A stretch of DNA of 32,599 nt from Thermoplasmata archaeon (GCA_041489255.1 JBGPQV010000027.1:1-32599), one strand, 5' to 3'. Shown: positions 3,385 through 11,675, counted from the first letter of the stretch. Notes: generated by a model not told the origin, from the letters alone. Numbers and translations are program-made.

Positions 3385-4725
3385 CTAGCGTAGGTTCCTG
3401 AACGCGAGCTCGGCAGCGAGCGACGAACTGGACACCATGTCGCCCAGCCCCACGGTCCCTTTCGGCTCGGGCACGATCTTCGTCGGCACGGCCGCCAGTC
3501 CGAACCCCTCGAGATAGCCCTTCGTCGCCAGCTCGTCCGAATCCTGCCTGAGCCAGACTTGCTCGAAGGCCTTTAGCATGTCAAGTCCACGTTCCGAGAC
3601 CGGCACTCTCAAGGCGGCGTCCAGGTCCTTCGGTCCAGGTATCCCGCCCTTCAACGCCGCCGCCGCGCCGATCAACGCCCCGCACAGCATGCCATCCCGG
3701 GCCGGCTCCTCTTTTCCCCGCACTTTGCAGAGGTAGTAACCCATCGTGTGGAGGTGGACCCTCTTCGGCCCGAGACCCATGAGGGCCAGCATGCCCTCGA
3801 CCTGGCCGAGCGGCCCTCTCTCGGGCTTGTGCCCTAGGCAATCCATCACGTCGCGCAGCTCGCCCTCGTTGAGCCCGACGCTATCGACCTTCCTCACGAC
3901 AATGTCGAGAATTTTCTCCAGCTTCATGAGTTCCTGCGTCGACGTCAGCTCCAGGTGGATAGTAATCCGGGGATTGCCGAGCCGCAGGAGCCTGATATGC
4001 TCGGCCACGCGGGCGAAGGCGCCCTCGTAGTCGTCGCCCATGTGGTTCAGTCCTGCCAGGAATGCGACGTCCACCAAGGGAGCGAGTTCCGGCAGGACCT
4101 CCTCCCAGTCGGTCTGGAACTCGATCGGGGTCGTGGGGCAGGCGATCATCCTGTTGTTCCTGCCGGGCCGCCCGGACGCGAAGGCCGTCCCGGTGCCGTA
4201 CTCGAAGATGTAGTGCGCCTCCGGCTCCACCTCTTCCACGAACTTCTCCGCCGGTATGACCCGCATTCCATCGTGAGAGGGCAGGGCCACGAGCGCCTTC
4301 GTCTTGCGGTAGAGGGCGGCAGCGCGTGCGTCGAACCTGTCCGCATGGACGATAACCGCGCTCCTCTGGAACTTCGAAAGGAGGTTCGCGATTATGGCCA
4401 CCTGCCCGCCGATCTGTTCTTTGTACGGGCCGAGCTTCGAGATCTCAGCGAAGACCTTCGGCTCGCAGACGACCTCCACGGCGACGTTGCGGCGGATGCT
4501 GAAGGCGAGGGCATCTGCGAAGTCCTGGATGCCACTCACCCTCCGTGGCCTCCGCGATTTCGAGGGTTTCGGAAGCTTGGACAGGAGTCGCTCGTCGACT
4601 TTCACGACGCGGTCGAGGACCGTGTTGTAGGCGAGGAGCGCCCTGCAGCCGGCAAGGGGACGCGCGCTCTTGACACTCCTGTAGAGGCTCTCCCAGGAGT
4701 CCTTCTCCCTATCCTTGCGGGGCAC
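3385..4725 (-). CDS. ADP-dependent glucokinase/phosphofructokinase
   Basis: AYNTVLD, IGGQVAIIAN, HYIFEY, NRMI, SVGLNEGE, HLHTMGYY and PKGTVGLGD motifs. GTG start at 4725 is inferred (TATA-like ATAATAT about 25-30 nt upstream); the ORF extends to TTG 4764. Confidence 0.9.
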   Translation of the reverse strand: MPRKDREKDSWESLYRSVKSARPLAGCRALLAYNTVLDRVVKVDERLLSKLPKPSKSRRPRRVSGIQDFADALAFSIRRNVAVEVVCEPKVFAEISKLGPYKEQIGGQVAIIANLLSKFQRSAVIVHADRFDARAAALYRKTKALVALPSHDGMRVIPAEKFVEEVEPEAHYIFEYGTGTAFASGRPGRNNRMIACPTTPIEFQTDWEEVLPELAPLVDVAFLAGLNHMGDDYEGAFARVAEHIRLLRLGNPRITIHLELTSTQELMKLEKILDIVVRKVDSVGLNEGELRDVMDCLGHKPERGPLGQVEGMLALMGLGPKRVHLHTMGYYLCKVRGKEEPARDGMLCGALIGAAAALKGGIPGPKDLDAALRVPVSERGLDMLKAFEQVWLRQDSDELATKGYLEGFGLAAVPTKIVPEPKGTVGLGDMVSSSSLAAELAFRNLR

Positions 4726-4773
4726 CGAGGGGGTATTCCTATGGGGAGATATTATGGCTCCCAAGGCCGGTTC

Positions 4774-4782
4774 TCCTTTGAC
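4774..4782 (+). repeat. Target-site duplication, left copy (TCCTTTGAC)
   Basis: Identical 9-mer at 8124-8132; both copies directly abut the terminal inverted repeats. Confidence 0.93.
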
Positions 4783-4806
4783 GGCTTTGCTAACTTAACT
4801 GAGATG
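4783..4806 (+). repeat. Left terminal inverted repeat GGCTTTGCTAACTTAACTGAGATG
   Basis: Reverse complement of 8100-8123 is GGCTTTGCTAACTTAAGTGATATG (2 mismatches). Confidence 0.93.
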
Positions 4807-4868
4807 CCCTCCATATGAGATAATGGGATTCTGGGCTGTGTCTGACGGCTTCCATGACGTAATGCATA

Positions 4869-5612
4869 CTAAGGTATGCTTCTGCGTTTCCTGTGCTCGG
4901 TGTTGAACACTACAACCTTGTCCCAATCTATGGACATATCCTCCTTGCAGAACTCTTCCCTGAACTCATCTTGGTATGCGGCAAGGGCCTTCGCTCGTGC
5001 GACATCGAACTCTCTTCTCGCCTTGGCGGCCTTACCCTCCATCAAGCGAGAAAGTTTCAGATGGAACTCGGGATCACCTGTCAGCCATTCCCAGAACGCC
5101 TTGCCGGAGAGTGTCCGTGCGAACTGTTTTCCCCCGCTTCGCGATACCCTACTACCCGAGCCACAACCAATCACAGCGTCGAAATTCTTTCCATTCCTCA
5201 GCCGAATACTCCGCATTGTCCTGAAGTTGTCGTCTAACCGTTTCTTCGCCTGAGCACTCCCCCAATGAGGACTTGACTTCACCGCCACTGCGGTGATTGA
5301 GCGTTCGTCCTCCATCACAATATCGATTCCCACCGCTTCCGCTTTGTGTCCCCCCTTCTTCCTTGCGGCCCACTGAGCGACGGCCTCGAACACCGTCTCC
5401 CCAAAGATTGTTTCGTCTGACTCCCTCAGATGTGTGTCAAGCATCGACTCGATGAGCGGCTTGGGTTCTTCAATGCCGAGCGAGCGGAGCAAGTAAGGGT
5501 TCTTTCGCTTGAGTATGTCCCTCAGTTTCAGGTTCTTTAGAGCGTCAGACCTTCTCTTGTAGAAATCAGCTAAGCATTTCGAGACTAATTTCTCTAAGTC
5601 GTTCTCTGGCAT
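4869..5612 (-). CDS. Type II restriction endonuclease, PmeII/EcoO109I-like family (about 247 aa)
   Basis: LKRKNPYL, ETIFG, GID...AVKSSPHWGS and SGKAFWEWLTGD motifs. It lies directly downstream of, and overlaps, an MTase. ATG 5612 is preceded by GAGG. Confidence 0.85.
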   Translation of the reverse strand: MPENDLEKLVSKCLADFYKRRSDALKNLKLRDILKRKNPYLLRSLGIEEPKPLIESMLDTHLRESDETIFGETVFEAVAQWAARKKGGHKAEAVGIDIVMEDERSITAVAVKSSPHWGSAQAKKRLDDNFRTMRSIRLRNGKNFDAVIGCGSGSRVSRSGGKQFARTLSGKAFWEWLTGDPEFHLKLSRLMEGKAAKARREFDVARAKALAAYQDEFREEFCKEDMSIDWDKVVVFNTEHRKRRSIP

Positions 5613-6465
5613 CTGTTGCCTCAGCGCGTGGACGTATGGCGATTGGAAGACCTTTCTTGCGCCTCTCAATCGCTGCGAGCGCCTCTTGGTAATATCTCTC
5701 TGATATTTCAATGCCTACGTAGTGTCGGTCCAAGTCGATGCAGGAGATGGCGGTGGTTCCCGCCCCCATGAAGGGATCGAGAACAACATCGCCTTTGTCC
5801 GTGAACAGTTTGATGAACCACGAAGGTAAGCCGATGGGGAACGCCGCGCTGTGATTACGATTAGAGCACTCGGTCGCCATATGGATGACGTTTGTAGGAT
5901 ACACCTTCTCCCTGCCAAGCCACTCGGAGACATTCTTGCCGAACCCACTCTTTGTCTTGGACTCGTCCCTTATCTTGTCAGTCTTGCTCAACTTCTTCAG
6001 CCGTTTCTCGGCCCAGTCCCCAACATCTACCATTACCCGCTCCTGGCGCATCTTGAAGTGCTTGTTCTTCGTGAAGTGTAGACAACGCTCCCAGGAGTCT
6101 CGGAATCTATTGGGCCACTTGCCTGGATAACAGTTGCTCTTGCACCAAATATATTCCTCTGTCCATTGCCACCCCTGTTTCCTCATCGCCAAGATCAGCT
6201 CCAGAACGTAAGGATGTCGTTCTCCGTTCATGACGCGTTCCTTGATGTTAAGAACGAACGATCCTGTAGGCTTCAAAACCCGCCTTAACTGTTCGGAAAT
6301 TGGGCGGAACCATTCCACATAGTGCTCTACACGGATCCCGCCATAGGTCTCCTTGCGGTTGTAAGCATACGGCGGGGATGTTATCACAAGGTCCACGGAA
6401 GCGGAGGGGAACGTAGGGAGGGTTGCAGCACAGTCGGCACGGTAAATGTGATCCAGGTCCATCAT
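5566..6465 (-). CDS. Site-specific DNA amino-methyltransferase, beta class, probably N4-cytosine (about 299 aa)
   Basis: Catalytic motif VITSPPY precedes the SAM-binding motif VLDPFMGAGTT; HSAAFP also present. ATG 6465 follows a GGGGAGGGG RBS. Confidence 0.93.
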   Translation of the reverse strand: MMDLDHIYRADCAATLPTFPSASVDLVITSPPYAYNRKETYGGIRVEHYVEWFRPISEQLRRVLKPTGSFVLNIKERVMNGERHPYVLELILAMRKQGWQWTEEYIWCKSNCYPGKWPNRFRDSWERCLHFTKNKHFKMRQERVMVDVGDWAEKRLKKLSKTDKIRDESKTKSGFGKNVSEWLGREKVYPTNVIHMATECSNRNHSAAFPIGLPSWFIKLFTDKGDVVLDPFMGAGTTAISCIDLDRHYVGIEISERYYQEALAAIERRKKGLPIAIRPRAEATDARERLREISLEMLS

Positions 6466-6574
6466 GAACCCCTCCCCTCGCTCGACAGACCATCCAAAGA
6501 GACCGAGACCTGTTTGCATCCCGACAGGCTCAAGCGTGACACTGATTGAAATCGCCAGCCTGCGGATTCATCTT

Positions 6575-6781
6575 TCACGGCTGCTGCCCCCGCCCCCCTG
6601 TTTCCGGTGGAGACTTGTTTTCCAGTCTTTCGATTAAGAGGTCTATAGCGGCATCTATGGCGTGCGACTCGCTTCTAAACTTGTATTCTTCCCAATGCTC
6701 CCTAATCCAGTCTCTGTGCTTCTTCTCGATGCTCACACTCATCTGTTGTTTGTGTTTGTCTAAGGGTTTCCTTGGCGGCAT
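6575..6781 (-). CDS. Small ribbon-helix-helix DNA-binding protein (68 aa; alternative ATG at 6811)
   Basis: Alternating beta strand QMSVSI, helix, then FRSESHAIDAAIDLLI, typical of CopG/MetJ-type RHH. Co-oriented upstream of the MTase. Confidence 0.75.
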   Translation of the reverse strand: MPPRKPLDKHKQQMSVSIEKKHRDWIREHWEEYKFRSESHAIDAAIDLLIERLENKSPPETGGRGQQP

Positions 6782-6824
6782 GGCTTTTGTCCGTTTTCTT
6801 TGCGACTGCATCGGAATTCCTGCG

Positions 6825-6856
6825 GGTTAATAACCATTCTGGGTAATAACAGTTAT
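6825..6856 (-). promoter_or_regulatory. AT-rich candidate promoter/operator of the RHH-M-R unit with two palindromes
   Basis: GGTTA-A-TAACC (6825-6835) and ATAAC-A-GTTAT (6846-6856) lie upstream of the RHH gene. Confidence 0.4.
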
Positions 6857-7153
6857 CATTAGTCATTCCTGCATACGGTGATAAGGTGGTAAGGTATCGC
6901 AATTCCTAGGATGGGATGAGCGTTAGTGTCAGAAGGGATGGAGCATCAGAGAAAGGCGCGGAAGGGCGTTCCAGACATCGTTACGCTACTTCGACGACGA
7001 GTCCTATCCTCTCTACGCCAAGAGTGAAAGTGTTTCTGAGCACACCGTAGCGCAAGAGGCATTCGTTAAACGCCAAGTTCTCCATAGAAATCTGAATACT
7101 TCTCCATATCCCCATGATAGGGCTAAGCCATCCCACTCCATATGGATAAGGGA

Positions 7154-7184
7154 AGACGACGGGTGTAGTGAGCACCCGCCGTCT
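7154..7184 (+). promoter_or_regulatory. Stem-loop directly before the transposase RBS
   Basis: AGACGACGGGTG-tagtgag-CACCCGCCGTCT (11/12 pairs), followed at once by GGGAGG and TTG 7200. Confidence 0.5.
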
Positions 7185-7199
7185 GGGAGGCTCGTTGAT

Positions 7200-8111
7200 T
7201 TGAGCAGCGAACCCCAGAGAAAGGATAGCGAGAAGTTAGCATATGAGGTTGTCGGAAGGAAGGGCGAATGCAAGTGGTGCGGCTCGGATAGGATCGTGAA
7301 GGCGGGCAAGGACAGCGGTAAGCAGATGTGGCTTTGCAAAGAGTGCCATCACCGTTTCCTCCAGAACGGTGCTCCTCCAAGGATGAGAACACCACTAAGG
7401 ACCATCGCCCTGGCGCACGAGTTCTACTTCGACGGGATGTCGCTGAGGAAAGTCAGGAGGAATCTTGGCAAGGCGCTTGGCATGAGCAGAAGCAATGTGG
7501 CGATCCTCAAATGGCTGAACAAATATCCCGCCTTGGTTGCCCCGTTCTTGGAGAACTTCCATCCGGTAACGGGCGTGGAATGGTGTGGGGATGAAACGCA
7601 GGTCAAAGTGAAGGGCGTGCCCTACTGGATATGGGAGGTCTTGGACAGCAAGACCCGTTTCCTGCTCTCGTTGATTGAGACCGACATCAGCCGAACGGAC
7701 GAGCGGGCAGTGGACTTGTTCGGACAGGCCAAGGCTCTTGGTGGGAGGCCGCAGGTTATCCAGACTGATGGGCTGCCCGCATACAACGCGGGCATCAGGC
7801 GAAACTTCTGGACTCCGAAGCCGGACCTTAGGGTGAAGCACAATGTCGGCGGCATGGACGAGAACGCGATGATCGAGAGGTATCACAATACCTACAAGGA
7901 TCGCTACAAGGTGATGAGAGGATTCAAAGCCGTGCCCAGTTCAACCGCCATTAATCAAGGGTTCAGGATACACTACAACTTTTTGAGGGAGCACATGGCT
8001 CTTAGGACGACTCCGGCGGTAGCAGCACAGATTCAGTTGCCCTTCGAGGACGGGTGGGGTGATCTTGTCCGCTGGGCGTCATACTGGCAAACGTTGAGTC
8101 ATATCACTTAA
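7200..8111 (+). CDS. DDE transposase, IS6-like, with N-terminal C4 zinc ribbon and HTH
   Basis: CKWC...GKQMWLCKEC zinc ribbon, GMSLRKV HTH, catalytic triad WCGDET / QTDG / NAMIERYH, and C-terminal YNFLREHMAL..TPA. Confidence 0.92.
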   Translation: MSSEPQRKDSEKLAYEVVGRKGECKWCGSDRIVKAGKDSGKQMWLCKECHHRFLQNGAPPRMRTPLRTIALAHEFYFDGMSLRKVRRNLGKALGMSRSNVAILKWLNKYPALVAPFLENFHPVTGVEWCGDETQVKVKGVPYWIWEVLDSKTRFLLSLIETDISRTDERAVDLFGQAKALGGRPQVIQTDGLPAYNAGIRRNFWTPKPDLRVKHNVGGMDENAMIERYHNTYKDRYKVMRGFKAVPSSTAINQGFRIHYNFLREHMALRTTPAVAAQIQLPFEDGWGDLVRWASYWQTLSHIT

Positions 8112-8123
8112 GTTAGCAAAGCC
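8100..8123 (-). repeat. Right terminal inverted repeat (contains the transposase TAA)
   Basis: CATATCACTTAAGTTAGCAAAGCC, the inverse of 4783-4806. Confidence 0.93.
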
Positions 8124-8132
8124 TCCTTTGAC
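8124..8132 (+). repeat. Target-site duplication, right copy (TCCTTTGAC)
   Basis: Identical to 4774-4782. Confidence 0.93.
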
Positions 8133-8135
8133 ATA

Positions 8136-8198
8136 GTATTATATAGCGTATCGGTGTTATAGGACAATTGTCGGACAAATAGCCGGAAGTTGTCAGAC
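8136..8198 (+). promoter_or_regulatory. Promoter of the RHH-ftsZ operon: TATA box plus GACAA/TTGTC operator-like repeats
   Basis: TTATATA at 8139-8145; palindromes GACAATTGTC (8163-8172) and TTGTC-G-GACAA (8168-8178); TTGTCAGAC at 8190-8198. Confidence 0.6.
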
Positions 8199-8214
8199 GC
8201 ACGAAGGAACCGCA

Positions 8215-8532
8215 ATGGCTTCGGAATCGGAACGTGTGACGATCAGAATCCCACCGGACAAGATCAACAGACTACAGACACTGGTGAAGAGCGGCGAGTT
8301 CTCCACCATCTCCGACGCCATCAGAGCAGCCATAGATCGCTTCATAGACCAGCAATTCGCGCCTGACTACATCCGCAAGATGACCATCGAACTGCCGAAG
8401 GGCAACGTGGTGGACCTGCAACAGCTCGTTCGGAGCGGTGACTCGGTTTCGATCGAGGACGCAATCCGCAACGCGGTGCGGGAATACGTCCGGAGGCGGG
8501 TTACGAAGGCCATCGAGAAGACCGACGAATGA
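8215..8532 (+). CDS. cdrS: CdrS-like cell-division regulator with two tandem ribbon-helix-helix domains
   Basis: Two repeats, RVTIRIP...LVKSGEFSTISDAIRAAI and KMTIELP...LVRSGDSVSIEDAIRNAV, directly upstream of ftsZ, as in the archaeal cdrS-ftsZ2 arrangement. Confidence 0.8.
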   Translation: MASESERVTIRIPPDKINRLQTLVKSGEFSTISDAIRAAIDRFIDQQFAPDYIRKMTIELPKGNVVDLQQLVRSGDSVSIEDAIRNAVREYVRRRVTKAIEKTDE

Positions 8533-8647
8533 GGGAAGGGCCACAGAAGAGACGCGTGACACCCCCAAAAAAGAAGTAGTGCGGGATGCACGAGGTGAGG
8601 CGGGCTCACCGCCGCCTCACCCCGATACCCGCAGGAAGGAAGACGGG

Positions 8648-9721
8648 ATGGGACTGGAGAACCTGCTCGACAGGAGCAATCGGGAACTTGAAGAGTTCGC
8701 CTTCCGCAAGCCGCGCATCCTCGTCGTCGGTTGCGGCGGGGCAGGGTGCAACAGCGTGAACCGCCTCTCGCAGATGGGTGCCAAGGATGTGGAGATGACG
8801 GTGATCAACACGGACAAGGTTCATCTGGACCGCGTCCAGGTGGAGAGCAAGTTCCTCCTTGGCGGCGGGATCACCCGGGGCTACGGGACTGGCGGGAACC
8901 CCGATGTCGCGGAGAGGGCGGCCCAGCTCCAGGAGAGAGAGCTGAGGGCGCTGGTTGGCGGTGCTGACTTGACTTTCATCACCGTCGGTCTTGGCGGCGG
9001 GACAGGGACGGGACTCGCTCCTGTCGTCGCCCGCCTCGCAAGGGAATCGGGCTCGATCGTGGTCGCGCTGGCGACGACGCCTTTCAAGGTCGAGAAGGGT
9101 AGACAGAAGGTCGCGCTGGCGGGACTGGAGAAACTCCGTCAGGCGACGGACAGCCTCATCATCCTCGACAACAACCGCCTCGTCGAGATCGTGCCTCAGC
9201 TGCCGGTCGAGCAGGCGTTCGCGGTCATGGACCAGCTCATCTCCGAGGTCGTCAAGAACGTCACAGAGATGATCAACCTCCCCGGACTCATCAACCTGGA
9301 TTTCGCTGACGTCAAGGCGGTGTTCCAGAGTGGCGGGATGTCCACCGTGCTCTACGGGGAGAACTCGATCTACGAGTCGGAGAAGCTCGTGGCCGAGATA
9401 CTCAACAACCCGCTCCTCGATGTCGACTGCAGCGCCGCAAAAGGGGCGCTCATACACATCTCATCCGGTCCTCGCCTGAAGCTCGGGACAGCGTACGCGG
9501 TCATCGACGGCCTGACGCGCGAAATGCCTGAAGAGGCGATGGTGAAGTTCGGCGTGCGCTTCGACCCCGAGAACGAGGGCACGATCAAGGTCATGTGCAT
9601 CATGACCGGCCTGCAGCTTCCGATGACGCTGAGGCCGTCGGATGGCATCGTCAAGGTAAGCGGGGCTTCCGGGGACGCGCCCCCGGCACCGCCAAACGCT
9701 TCTGGATTCCTGAGAAGATAG
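8648..9721 (+). CDS. ftsZ: Cell division protein FtsZ (probably FtsZ2, about 357 aa)
   Basis: VVGCGGAGCN, INTD, GGGTGTG tubulin signature and INLDFAD T7 loop. ATG 8648 follows AGGAAGGAAG. Confidence 0.96.
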   Translation: MGLENLLDRSNRELEEFAFRKPRILVVGCGGAGCNSVNRLSQMGAKDVEMTVINTDKVHLDRVQVESKFLLGGGITRGYGTGGNPDVAERAAQLQERELRALVGGADLTFITVGLGGGTGTGLAPVVARLARESGSIVVALATTPFKVEKGRQKVALAGLEKLRQATDSLIILDNNRLVEIVPQLPVEQAFAVMDQLISEVVKNVTEMINLPGLINLDFADVKAVFQSGGMSTVLYGENSIYESEKLVAEILNNPLLDVDCSAAKGALIHISSGPRLKLGTAYAVIDGLTREMPEEAMVKFGVRFDPENEGTIKVMCIMTGLQLPMTLRPSDGIVKVSGASGDAPPAPPNASGFLRR

Positions 9722-9730
9722 CGATCATCT

Positions 9731-9751
9731 ACCTCCTCCCCCTCTTTTTCT
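9731..9751 (+). terminator. Pyrimidine/oligo-T tract after ftsZ
   Basis: CCTCCTCCCCCTCTTTTTCT between the convergent ftsZ and thrS genes. Confidence 0.4.
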
Positions 9752-9782
9752 GATCATTGACAGACGAAGTGCCGTCGGATGG

Positions 9783-11675
9783 TCATCCGCGGAACCCTGG
9801 TCTCAGACTGATTGGCTTCGGGAGGCTCAGTGGCTTGAACGGCCTGCCCTTTGTCTCCGTGAGGATCCTCGCTTGGAGTTCCTCGACCGTCATCTCGGTC
9901 TGTTCCTTTCCGGTCCTCTCGCGGACGTTGAGCTTGCCCGACTCTACTTCCTTCCTGCCGACGACAGCGATGTACGGCACCCATTCTTTCTCCGCCTTGC
10001 GTATCTTCTTGTTCAGCGAGTCGTCAGTGTCGTCGAGGTCCGCCCTCACACTCTCGAATCTCGAGAGCATGGACTTGCAGTACTCCAGCTGGTCTGACGA
10101 GACGGGGACGAGTCTCACCTGCGTCGGCGAGAGCCAGAGGGGCAAAATCGGCACCTTCCCCGCCTTCATCCCCATGTACGCCTTTTCCAGGAGCGCGTAG
10201 ATGTTCCTCTCGATCGCCCCCGCAGGGGATAGGTGCAGGATGTACGGGAACTGCCTCTTGCCGTCCGCATCGATGTAGGTGATGTCGAACCTCTTCGCGT
10301 TCTCGGTGTCGATCTGGTCGGTCGTCAGGGCCGCGGCCTTGTCGCTCGCGTCGACGAAGTTGATCTCGTACTTCATGACGTAGTAGAAGAACTGCCTGTC
10401 CCACGTCTCGAGGAGGAGCGGCTTCCCCCAGCGTCTCGCCATCTCAAGCGCGTGCTCCTTCCCGTTTTCCCAGAAGTCCTTCGTGACGCGTATGCTCAGC
10501 TCGAGGTCCGCGGGCACCGAGAAGCCGATGTTGCCCAGCAGGCTCATGGCGACCCCGAACCGCACGAGCATTTCGGACTTGGCCTGCCCCATGTCAGTGC
10601 AGAACGCATGGCAGTCGGGCATCGTGAAGGACCTCAGGCGTCTCAGACCCGCCAGCTCTCCCCTCTGCTCCGCACGGAACGAGTATCGCGTGAGCTCGTA
10701 GAGGCGCATGGGCATCTGCCTGTACGACAGGGTCATGTCGTGCGCCATGAGGAACTGTCCGAAGCACGCGGCGAAGCGCAGGAAGGTCTTCTTGTTCGGC
10801 GTCTCGAGGATGTACTGCCTGGCGGGGAACCTGTTCAGGTAGCTTTTGAGGGCGGGGTGCTCGAAGTCGTACATGATCGGCGACTCGATCTCCATGCCGC
10901 CATAGTCGATGATCGTGCGAGTCGTTATTTCCTCGAGGAGCGACTTGATCAGCCGTCCCTTGGGATAGTATCGGAAGTTGCCAGGGTCGCTGCCGGGCTC
11001 GTAGTCGACGAGTTCGAGCTCCCTCATGATCTTGGTGTGCGGCGGCTCCTCCTTGACCTCCCTGCTCTTGGCCATCTCGTAGATCGCGAACTTCCCCAGG
11101 TTCACGTGAGACTTGAAGTCGAAGCCGTCCACCCTGCCGTCTTTGATCGAGAGAGGTGACAGTCTTCCTGATGGATCGAGGATGAACCACTCGGAGACGA
11201 GCTTCTCCTCTGCCTTGACAGCCTCGGAGACCTCTTCCTTCTTCGCTTCCGCGGTCACCTCGATCTCCCTCGAGAGCTCGGAGAGGGGGTGGCCCTTGCA
11301 GGATATCTTGAAGGACTTGTAGTAGCCAAAGGGCGAGGACATGACCTCGTAGCCTGCCTCAACGAGGTCCTCGGCGATGTGGCCGAACATCTCCCTTGCG
11401 GGCGCGGCCTTCGCGAGGGAGGGGCTCAGGTGCGCGTAAGGATACACGACGACGCGGGTCGTCTTGACGGTCTTCGCGACATCCTGAATCTCATTGACGG
11501 CCGCTCTGGACGTTCCGCCGACATCCTTCTCGTCTTTCTCCTCTGCCGTGATGAAGCAGACGAGCGCCTCGTCGATCTTCCCGCGCTTCAGCTCGTCGGG
11601 GATGGGCAGGGCGTCCTTGGTCTTCTCCCTGACCTCGTACTCCATGTAGTCCGCATGGATGAATAGTATCCGCAT
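9783..11675 (-). CDS. thrS: Threonine--tRNA ligase, archaeal type with N-terminal editing domain (about 630 aa)
   Basis: MRILFIHADY start, YPYAHLS and PFGYYKSFKISCKGHPLSE editing domain, LRFAACFGQF, FTMPDCH, and anticodon-binding domain. Confidence 0.97.
   Translation of the reverse strand: MRILFIHADYMEYEVREKTKDALPIPDELKRGKIDEALVCFITAEEKDEKDVGGTSRAAVNEIQDVAKTVKTTRVVVYPYAHLSPSLAKAAPAREMFGHIAEDLVEAGYEVMSSPFGYYKSFKISCKGHPLSELSREIEVTAEAKKEEVSEAVKAEEKLVSEWFILDPSGRLSPLSIKDGRVDGFDFKSHVNLGKFAIYEMAKSREVKEEPPHTKIMRELELVDYEPGSDPGNFRYYPKGRLIKSLLEEITTRTIIDYGGMEIESPIMYDFEHPALKSYLNRFPARQYILETPNKKTFLRFAACFGQFLMAHDMTLSYRQMPMRLYELTRYSFRAEQRGELAGLRRLRSFTMPDCHAFCTDMGQAKSEMLVRFGVAMSLLGNIGFSVPADLELSIRVTKDFWENGKEHALEMARRWGKPLLLETWDRQFFYYVMKYEINFVDASDKAAALTTDQIDTENAKRFDITYIDADGKRQFPYILHLSPAGAIERNIYALLEKAYMGMKAGKVPILPLWLSPTQVRLVPVSSDQLEYCKSMLSRFESVRADLDDTDDSLNKKIRKAEKEWVPYIAVVGRKEVESGKLNVRERTGKEQTEMTVEELQARILTETKGRPFKPLSLPKPISLRPGFRG

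Follow-up and report, generated by a model that had tools for sequence, protein, structure and literature searches.

An IS6-type transporter element with a predicted restriction-modification operon, inserted beside a TATA box in a Thermoplasmata archaeon

Insertion sequences (ISs) of the IS6 family are described, in passages of PMC7986276, as elements of 0.7–0.9 kb (up to 1.76 kb) that carry the transposase as their sole gene and generate an 8-bp target duplication. Within the family, clade h, with its Zn-finger, ISCpe7-like transposases, is given there a size of 1.23–1.46 kb and members all from Clostridia (Varani et al. 2021, PMC7986276), and the same passages name ISDsp3, with one hypothetical gene as passenger, as the single passenger-carrying IS6 member. 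Such transporter ISs (tISs) are otherwise known in IS1595, IS66, IS481, ISL3 and ISNCY, with examples in parts of PMC6305408. Restriction-modification (R-M) genes have also been described as mobile units, enclosed in imperfect inverted repeats with an 8-bp duplication and an empty site in a relative (Furuta, Abe and Kobayashi 2010, PMC2853133, in part); two clear cases are given, from Xanthomonas oryzae and Neisseria, of which one lacked a transposase and the other held a gene with the COG3677 transposase motif, considered by the authors to be a likely inactivated derivative, and no archaeal system survived their selection. Here we analyze a 32,599-nt stretch of DNA (the window, to which all coordinates refer unless a locus is named) from the 2.74-Mb genome of a sediment archaeon of the Thermoplasmata, in which positions 4783–8123 are taken up by a 3,341-bp unit: an IS6-type, single-transposase transporter element with a predicted R-M operon, in an archaeon.

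The unit resembles each of the described systems in part. With IS6 clade h it shares a core of helix-turn-helix (HTH) and DDE domains, an N-terminal CxxC Zn finger and ends starting with GG, but, unlike the members in those passages, it has a 9-bp duplication, a length of 3.3 kb, three cargo genes, an archaeal host and a fixed target position. Like ISDsp3 and the other tISs in the passages cited, it has a single transposase and encloses its passengers in a single pair of ends, whereas it is loaded, in contrast to ISDsp3, with a complete R-M operon, and most members of its clade bear cargo (19/24 elements). As in the units reported in PMC2853133, in the parts cited, R-M genes lie in imperfect inverted repeats with a short duplication and an empty site in a related genome; here, however, the host is archaeal, the transposase gene inside the unit is uninterrupted, and a whole family can be seen.

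The boundaries of the unit are defined by inverted ends of 24 nt that are complementary at 22/24 positions and perfect over the outer 16 nt, GGCTTTGCTAACTTAA. The left terminal inverted repeat (TIR), GGCTTTGCTAACTTAACTGAGATG, was located at 4783–4806 on the plus strand by end comparison and a 16-mer scan, and the right one lies at 8100–8123 on the minus strand, overlapping the stop codon of the transposase gene. Directly outside them stands the 9-mer TCCTTTGAC, at 4774–4782 and again, as a perfect match, at 8124–8132. Allowing up to three mismatches, GGCTTTGCTAACTTAA has two matches in the window, which are the two ends (0.04 expected from 100 shuffles), and no further credible copy of the 16-mer exists in the 2.74-Mb genome, where the two extra matches at three mismatches are outnumbered by those of the reversed control pattern (2+2 versus 4+7); the element is single-copy in its genome. 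When an 18-nt end was scanned over 4807–8099 on both strands, the best match was 11/18, which is the chance level, and no internal second end was found, including near 7100–7200, where such an end would define a simple IS according to the original prediction for this locus. The G+C content is ~0.52 within the unit versus ~0.62 outside, and the four open reading frames (ORFs) between the ends are all uninterrupted. The layout foreseen in the original prediction, with TIRs of 24 bp, R-M genes on the minus strand, a transposase on the plus strand, four intact ORFs and a perfect target-site duplication, is therefore recovered in every item.

Empty alleles provide an independent view of the same boundaries. 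Apart from the genome studied here, the genus is represented by G001 alone; its flanks, which are 96.4% and 98.4% identical to those of the window, are directly joined without the 3,341 bp, and the empty site reads GGTTCTCCTTTGACATAGTATT, with one copy of TCCTTTGAC. Four public sediment metagenome runs (X2, X6, X9 and X11) were also compared over the stretch. Contigs of X6 (53.6 kb) and X9 (9.2 kb) join window position 4772 straight to 8123 and so represent the empty allele, and contigs of X2 span both junctions of the occupied allele without a difference. As G001 and the X6 and X9 contigs carry the exact empty site, the unit was inserted as a whole, and the insertion is recent and polymorphic; a recent insertion had been proposed beforehand, together with the search for an empty allele in relatives. 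The passengers move along with the ends: the empty alleles lack all of them, and in relatives a shared cargo gene occurs at different sites. The combination of single copy and duplication fits a resolved cointegrate or cut-and-paste transposition alike. Overall, we place the probability that 4783–8123 is a cargo-carrying transposon, belonging to a family of such elements, at roughly 85%.

The cargo comprises three compact, co-oriented genes on the minus strand, divergent from the transposase gene. At 4869–5612 lies a gene for an EcoO109I-like Type II restriction endonuclease (REase), with an ATG start in an ORF that remains open back to a TTG at 5711; its product matches PF14511 (RE_EcoO109I, E 3.7e-45) over profile positions 2–196 of 198. 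The start of this gene overlaps by 47 nt the end of a gene at 5566–6519 for a beta-class N4/N6 DNA methyltransferase (MTase), which matches PF01555 (E 6e-44) over profile positions 1–219 of 221 and carries in its translation the motifs SPPY (residues 48–51) and FMGAGT (near the C-terminal part). Next to it, at 6575–6811, lies an ORF of 78 residues whose product is a candidate controller for these genes; 55 nt separate its end from the ATG of the MTase gene. The REase gene and the adjoining MTase gene on the same strand, together with this small ORF, are predicted to form a Type II R-M system. Restriction, methylation and the killing of cells that lose the R-M genes are ascribed to the cargo from general knowledge of Type II systems only. 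The divergent intergenic region at 6812–7022 presumably contains the promoters from which the R-M operon and the transposase gene are transcribed.

The small ORF offers fewer clues. It has no match in Pfam or NCBIfam and no PDB sequence match, and a search of 5.8 billion proteins returned only the ORF itself. In its AF2 model (mean pLDDT 68.8), helices at residues 30–39 and 48–65 (pLDDT ~90) follow a short N-terminal segment, and the best Foldseek matches are the ribbon-helix-helix (RHH) proteins ParB of pCXC100 (E 2.9) and ParD (E 3.6), both non-significant. The RHH label given to this gene in the original prediction is therefore plausible but not established by E-values of 2.9–3.6. A relationship with the host regulator CdrS was also considered and discarded (BLASTP 20.8 bits, not meaningful). 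A separate resemblance is found at the nucleotide level, where a 22-nt inverted repeat (77%) links 6640–6661 in this ORF with 8329–8350 in host cdrS; it reflects similar second-helix codons on opposite strands (AIDAAIDLLI versus AIRAAIDRFI) and is not structural-looking.

The transposase gene (7200–8111, plus strand) encodes 303 residues in which Pfam, NCBIfam and alignment identify a Zn finger, an HTH and a DDE domain of IS6 type. The protein matches PF13610 (DDE_Tnp_IS240, E 1.8e-14) with 54.5 bits against a cut-off of 27, and its highest-scoring NCBIfam family is the IS6 equivalog NF033587, although the 101.2 bits reached are below the cut-off of 125; the IS1 equivalog NF033558 scores 51.9 bits, below its cut-off of 100. 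The N-terminal Zn-binding domain is of the IS1/IS1595 type (NF050000, 39.8 bits versus a cut-off of 28). In its classical form IS1 consists of two ORFs joined by a frameshift, whereas Zn finger, HTH and DDE domain here all lie in one continuous ORF. Residues 62–281 match IS6/ISCpe7 transposases of bacterial plasmids with 32–33% identity (tblastn, E 2e-25); 254 plasmid records were matched, and among the matches listed all are annotated as IS6 (15/15). The residues D131, D190 and E226 are invariant in an alignment of 18 sequences, relatives are named 'IS6 family' or 'IS1/IS6 family' transposase in their sources, and the ends of the element begin with GG, those of relatives reading GGTTCTGTTGCG / GGTTCCGTTGCG. 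A maximum-likelihood tree, rooted at the midpoint and with several forks left open, places the window with L037, L031, L039 and L040 (99/96) and unites the plain ISs in one clade (97/96), but does not set two bacterial IS6 transposases apart from the archaeal members. The earlier assignment to IS6 thus stands for the catalytic core, but the 9-bp rather than 8-bp duplication, the length of 3,341 bp, the four ORFs and the NCBIfam score below cut-off fall outside the family as described. With passenger genes within the ends of a single-transposase element, the unit is a tIS.

To delimit further members, inverted-end pairs directly abutting an identical direct repeat were called around transposase relatives. 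Such relatives occur at E <= 0.001 in 17/41 close genomes and at E <= 1e-40 in 39/401 genomes of the class, representing 18/104 genera; the nearest ones in genomes are 38–47% identical, and some on metagenome contigs reach 79–84%. A first set of 39 sources (the window and L025–L062) yielded 13 elements of 2,715–7,490 bp with ends and a perfect 9-bp repeat, most sources without a call being short or cut contigs. A second set of 35 sources (L093–L127), for which ends had to start with G and match at >=20/30 positions next to an 8- or 9-bp repeat, yielded 11 accepted elements of 1.05–9.9 kb, seven with 9 bp and four with 8 bp; dropped from this set were seven loci with weaker candidates (G+C-rich DNA), 16 without a candidate and one without a transposase match. 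Together these are 24 delimited Thermoplasmata elements, 20 with 9-bp and four with 8-bp repeats, of which 19 are 2.7–9.9 kb long with 1.5–8 kb of variable cargo and five are plain ISs of 1.05–2.0 kb.

The cargo itself varies from element to element. DNA methyltransferases are found in five of the first 13 elements. L033 carries a homologous module of small ORF, MTase and REase (60%, 60% and 24–26% identity) in the same place and orientation, with 3 kb extra, and its small ORF, which occupies the same position, is 49% identical over the alignment to that of the window. L032 encodes an MTase-Mrr fusion, L031 a DndB-like protein and a 581-residue MTase, and L039 an MTase; Zn-ribbon or HNH proteins are encoded by L034, L035 and L028, and the remaining cargo ORFs of the first set have no Pfam match. 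Relatives with transposases 84% identical to that of the window have no R-M genes adjoining the leader described below. Three elements with transposases 91–93% identical have one cargo gene in common (77–80%), yet each is inserted at a site of its own and their remaining content is not the same; beyond the transposase gene, none is shared by every element. The shared gene at different sites and the lack of a universal second gene indicate that cargo is borne by the unit and exchanged between units. The search for archaeal homologues with calling of TIRs and duplications that had been suggested at the outset, carried out here to 24 delimited elements and a catalogue of the first 13 cargos, thus bears out the proposal of a wider family with interchangeable cargo, in which 19 members carry passengers and R-M genes may be homologous, different or absent.

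Some members stand apart. L101, L107, L109 and L112 form a sister group with 8-bp duplications, GGTTCTGT-type ends and 3–7 kb of cargo, and three of the four sit 6 bp from a TATA box. The 7.25-kb element L029:2526–9775 has family ends and a 9-bp duplication around a transposase remnant of only 78 residues, and looks decayed or non-autonomous.

Going beyond the original prediction, the family members also share a target position and often stack in tandem at the same promoters. In the window, the right duplication is followed by a host spacer of 6 nt (ATAGTA), presumably the TFB-recognition element (BRE), and by the TATA box TTATATA of the promoter of cdrS (8133–8145, plus strand), both uninterrupted by the insertion; cdrS, encoding an RHH regulator, lies at 8215–8532 on the plus strand and is followed by ftsZ. 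We reconstructed the empty site of each element and examined it for TTATATA at offset 6 after the duplication. In the first set a TATA box stands beside the duplication in 13/13 cases, with a spacer of 6 nt in 12 and of 7 nt in one (L029), and TTATATA is present at offset 6 in 11/13 with <=1 mismatch and in 12/13 with <=2, compared to backgrounds of 0.14% and 1.1%, respectively, of all positions in the same loci. In the later 11 elements, the corresponding counts are six and nine (binomial tails 3e-15 and 1e-16). A 6-bp spacing to the TATA box is thus seen in 21/24 elements. Within the first set, the third base of the spacer is A in 12/13, and a T occurs 13 nt past the box in 11/13. In most cases the gene reading away from the element begins 20–75 nt past the TATA box. 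The insertion thus lies ahead of a genuine promoter, and spacer, TATA box and gene all remain intact. It is the transposase end that faces the promoter in 16/22 elements.

Particular promoters are hit repeatedly. That of cdrS is the target in the window, in L033 (protein 75% identical) and in L095 (62%), and that of the thermosome gene in L031, L039, L101 and L117; the promoters of the genes for TATA-binding protein (TBP), ribosomal protein S13, Cdc48 and FtsZ are each represented by one element. The TBP case, in L045, is an element at 6382–11057 at the promoter of the gene at 5737–6288. The duplications differ in each case, and the repeated hits are therefore independent events. In 6/24 elements the flank of the duplication that faces away from the TATA box is the terminus of another family element, as expected if the same 9-mer had been entered a second time; no third copy of the duplication was seen beyond the abutting elements within the stretches examined. 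At the window's own cdrS site, L037 holds another family element, and a 16.8-kb contig of X11 holds two other family elements in tandem. Separately, L037 (1670–1930), L038 (2578–2988) and the X11 contig, which are close relatives of the window's element, contain 250–790 bp of unrelated sequence between the transposase gene and a short remnant consisting of the last 13 transposase codons and the right end, as might result from nesting or from tandem insertion close to that end. For the thermosome site of L031 an exact empty junction could not be aligned base for base, relatives of the genus being ~70% identical in the flank; in G327 the thermosome gene and the same neighbor lie 216 nt apart with no element.

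We therefore lean, with some reserve, towards active targeting, in which the transposase picks out the upstream border of the BRE, 6 bp ahead of the TATA box. The target could be recognized by direct reading of BRE and TATA box, or by docking on the bent promoter bound by TBP and transcription factor B (TFB). No archaeal transposon that targets TATA boxes was found in the full-text literature searched, as judged by title and abstract of the papers listed and in a body that leaves most subscription journals outside and does not cover ISfinder, and the IS passages of PMC6640164 name none. Likewise, no statement on IS6 insertion at a fixed position relative to a promoter was seen in the passages of PMC7986276.

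A further feature common to many members precedes the transposase gene. The gap between the 78-residue ORF and this gene is 388 bp (6812–7199), and the expectation of about 390 bp of non-coding DNA was correct insofar as it is not coding; most of it, however, belongs to a leader of the transposase mRNA that is both conserved and structured (7023–7216, plus strand), as defined by alignment, folds and a covariance model. In a 22-member alignment with further conserved blocks, the leader opens with the nearly invariant motif AGTGAAAGTG (7023–7032). Towards its 3′ end, on the same strand, folding gives hairpins P1 (7154–7184) and P2 (7192–7210); the Shine–Dalgarno (SD) sequence GGGAGG (7185–7190) is paired to CCCC at 7212–7215, and the TTG start codon (7200–7202) lies in the loop of P2. 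The frame of the transposase is open for 91 codons upstream (6927–7199) without ATG, GTG or TTG, giving 394 codons in total (366–445 in relatives, where gene callers extend the protein to 366–455 residues). An N-terminal extension of the transposase was ruled out given the lack of an in-frame start codon and a distribution of substitutions that is flat over codon positions: relative to three 80%-identical relatives, the differences at the three positions are 12/14/20, 16/13/17 and 28/25/20 in the leader, versus 45/24/121 and similar in the coding sequence. It follows that the leader is conserved but not coding, and the long annotated N-termini of relatives are probably artefacts of this conserved RNA.

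For the last 68 nt, the P1/P2 structure is the minimum-energy fold in 16/17 sequences, with z <= -3 in 12/17. Alignment of the 256-nt leader with MAFFT followed by RNAalifold recovered only P2 since P1 was misaligned, and per-sequence folds and a covariance model were then used. The model, built from five sequences, located the motif in 16/50 sources, one of which, L095, had been previously unused. The resulting alignment comprises 16 sequences and is fitted to the model; 93% of its cells pair (34–41% in slid controls) and 17/22 pairs show double changes, a level reached by 0/500 shuffles. The occurrence of U-G pairs on the sense strand speaks for RNA. No Rfam family matched (E <= 1) over 4600–8400. 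With the SD sequence paired and the start codon in a hairpin loop, the leader is probably a translational brake on the transposase, which is the simplest reading, but the conserved length of ~190 nt is not explained by such a brake alone. In most members a (C)ACTTTCAC block follows AGTGAAAGTG by ~100 nt and is partly complementary to it (alignment columns 52–62 and ~155–163), and the two may pair as a long-range helix closing a larger RNA domain. In L044 (3881–3952), and also in L045, L046, L049 and L050, the P2 loop is without a canonical in-frame start codon, and in the L044 subclade the first called ORF start lies downstream of the initial cysteines of the Zn finger; the gene may be decaying, or its start codon may be an unusual one.

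Taken together, the data suggest the following course of events. One Zn-finger, IS6-type DDE transposase would act on the two 24-bp ends and insert the 3,341-bp unit with a 9-bp staggered cut, and the arriving R-M operon would methylate the new host and restrict unmodified incoming DNA. With the duplication of 9 bp (8 bp in some members) ending 6 bp upstream of the TATA box, BRE, TATA box and host gene stay intact, and repeated hits on the same strong housekeeping promoters lead to tandem stacks; the leader RNA would probably hold translation of the transposase down. Strong promoters such as those of the genes for CdrS, thermosome, TBP, S13 and Cdc48 may thus serve as safe havens and as a base for the delivery of exchangeable cargo.

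Several points weigh against this interpretation. L107 and L124 do not fit the target position, and L029 fits at offset 7. The motif was derived from the first 13 sites, and the independent test consists of the later 11, which we had filtered ourselves. Insertions downstream of the TATA box or in genes would be selected away, so that part of the pattern could be survivorship. Annotation of cargo covers the first 13 elements, and six large elements of the second set lie outside it. The REase has no sequence match in PDB (phmmer, E <= 1), the RHH assignment of the small ORF is a reasonable guess from a structural model whose matches are not significant, and covariation was counted on an alignment to which the model itself had been applied for fitting. 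Finally, we infer catalysis by the transposase and activity of the R-M system from their sequences, and the single copy in the genome means that the transposase may be inactive.

The last point leads to the possibility that the unit moved once and is now a fixed relic in which the transposase, the R-M system or both are inactive, and which would then lack both autonomy and a functioning defense module. The single copy, the TTG start buried in a hairpin, the lack of a close homologue of the 78-residue ORF among 5.8 billion proteins and the mere 24–26% identity of the REase to its L033 counterpart are all compatible with such a relic. The four ORFs are nevertheless intact with full-length domain matches, D131, D190 and E226 are invariant across 18 sequences, the ends match at 22/24 positions next to a perfect duplication, and the site is polymorphic in present-day sediments, and we consider a relic unlikely.

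The several alleles at the cdrS site, with the R-M element, with other family elements or empty, could alternatively go back to a single ancient insertion, after which strains swapped the entire locus by homologous recombination in its flanks. The flanks in L037 and X11 are indeed nearly identical to those of the window, and the elements between them differ by ~18–20%. However, each distinct element still needs its own insertion at this exact 9-mer, the same positional rule applies at cdrS in L033 and L095, with different duplications, and at unrelated genes, and tandem arrays sharing a duplication indicate successive insertions. Exchange of alleles from one founding event is accordingly a doubtful account of the site.

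Even less probable is that insertion is essentially random, with the TATA-adjacent position marking the survivors because other sites are lethal or costly in compact archaeal genomes. The data do consist solely of surviving insertions in assembled genomes, and all sites are intergenic with the core promoter intact. Selection of this kind, however, predicts neither an exact 6-nt spacer in 21/24 elements versus a background of 1.1%, nor the independent targeting of one promoter several times over, each time with another duplication, nor a second element in the 9-mer duplicated by the first. As for a resident island of R-M genes beside which a simple IS landed, with the outer repeats coincidental or belonging to something else, the usual IS6 format of ~0.8 kb and one gene (one passenger-carrying member in the passages of PMC7986276) speaks for it, but it is refuted by empty alleles that lack exactly 3,341 bp and one copy of the 9-mer, and is further opposed by the lack of a second end near 7100–7200 (best 11/18), the 16-nt end being found solely at the two outer positions and the low G+C across the whole unit, leaving it hardly any credence.

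Insertion at a fixed distance from a promoter element has parallels in outcome elsewhere. Yeast Ty3 and Ty1 insert at Pol III genes, Tf1 of Schizosaccharomyces pombe at Pol II promoters and Tn7 at attTn7, and these elements are known to depend on a protein tether or a dedicated target selector. They share with the present family the fixed distance, the sparing of the gene, the reuse of sites and the pile-up of insertions; the enzymes and hosts are, however, unrelated, and the target position here is read from insertion sites. We know of no archaeal or IS6 example of safe-haven insertion. Defense cargo is carried by Tn7-like and other large transposons, which are multi-gene machines of 10–100 kb; the present element is alike as a vehicle of defense genes but is IS-sized and has a single transposase.

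If this reading is true, a single transposase is enough for an IS-sized element to deliver a whole defense or addiction module in archaea, where mobile R-M units are hardly documented (none was found in PMC2853133, in the parts cited). Carrying cargo would then be usual throughout one branch of the IS6 superfamily, in contrast to the textbook movement of cargo by IS pairs only. A one-protein transposase placed relative to BRE and TATA box would provide a new probe of archaeal promoter architecture and possibly a means of placing genes at safe, defined positions in archaea, for which genetic tools are scarce. Repeated insertions at cdrS, which encodes a cell-division regulator, and at thermosome genes could rewire upstream regulation in natural populations. 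The family would also represent an archaeal counterpart of the strategy of Ty3, Ty1 and Tf1, otherwise known from eukaryotes, with the ~190-nt leader as part of its control. It is the fixed position, the stacking, the routine and exchangeable cargo and the conserved leader that set the family above one more mobile R-M system.

On the other side of the insertion lies a host gene for an ADP-dependent sugar kinase (3385–4764, minus strand), which the element has separated from its former upstream region. The kinase gene has a TTG start at 4764 with an SD-like GGAG just upstream, and the cargo operon appears to read through the left end towards it. Cut off from its former upstream DNA, the kinase may now depend on read-through from the R-M operon. 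The host genome (G000) also encodes three TBP paralogues (contigs C17, C1 and C2) and four TFB paralogues (contigs C5, C21 and C1).

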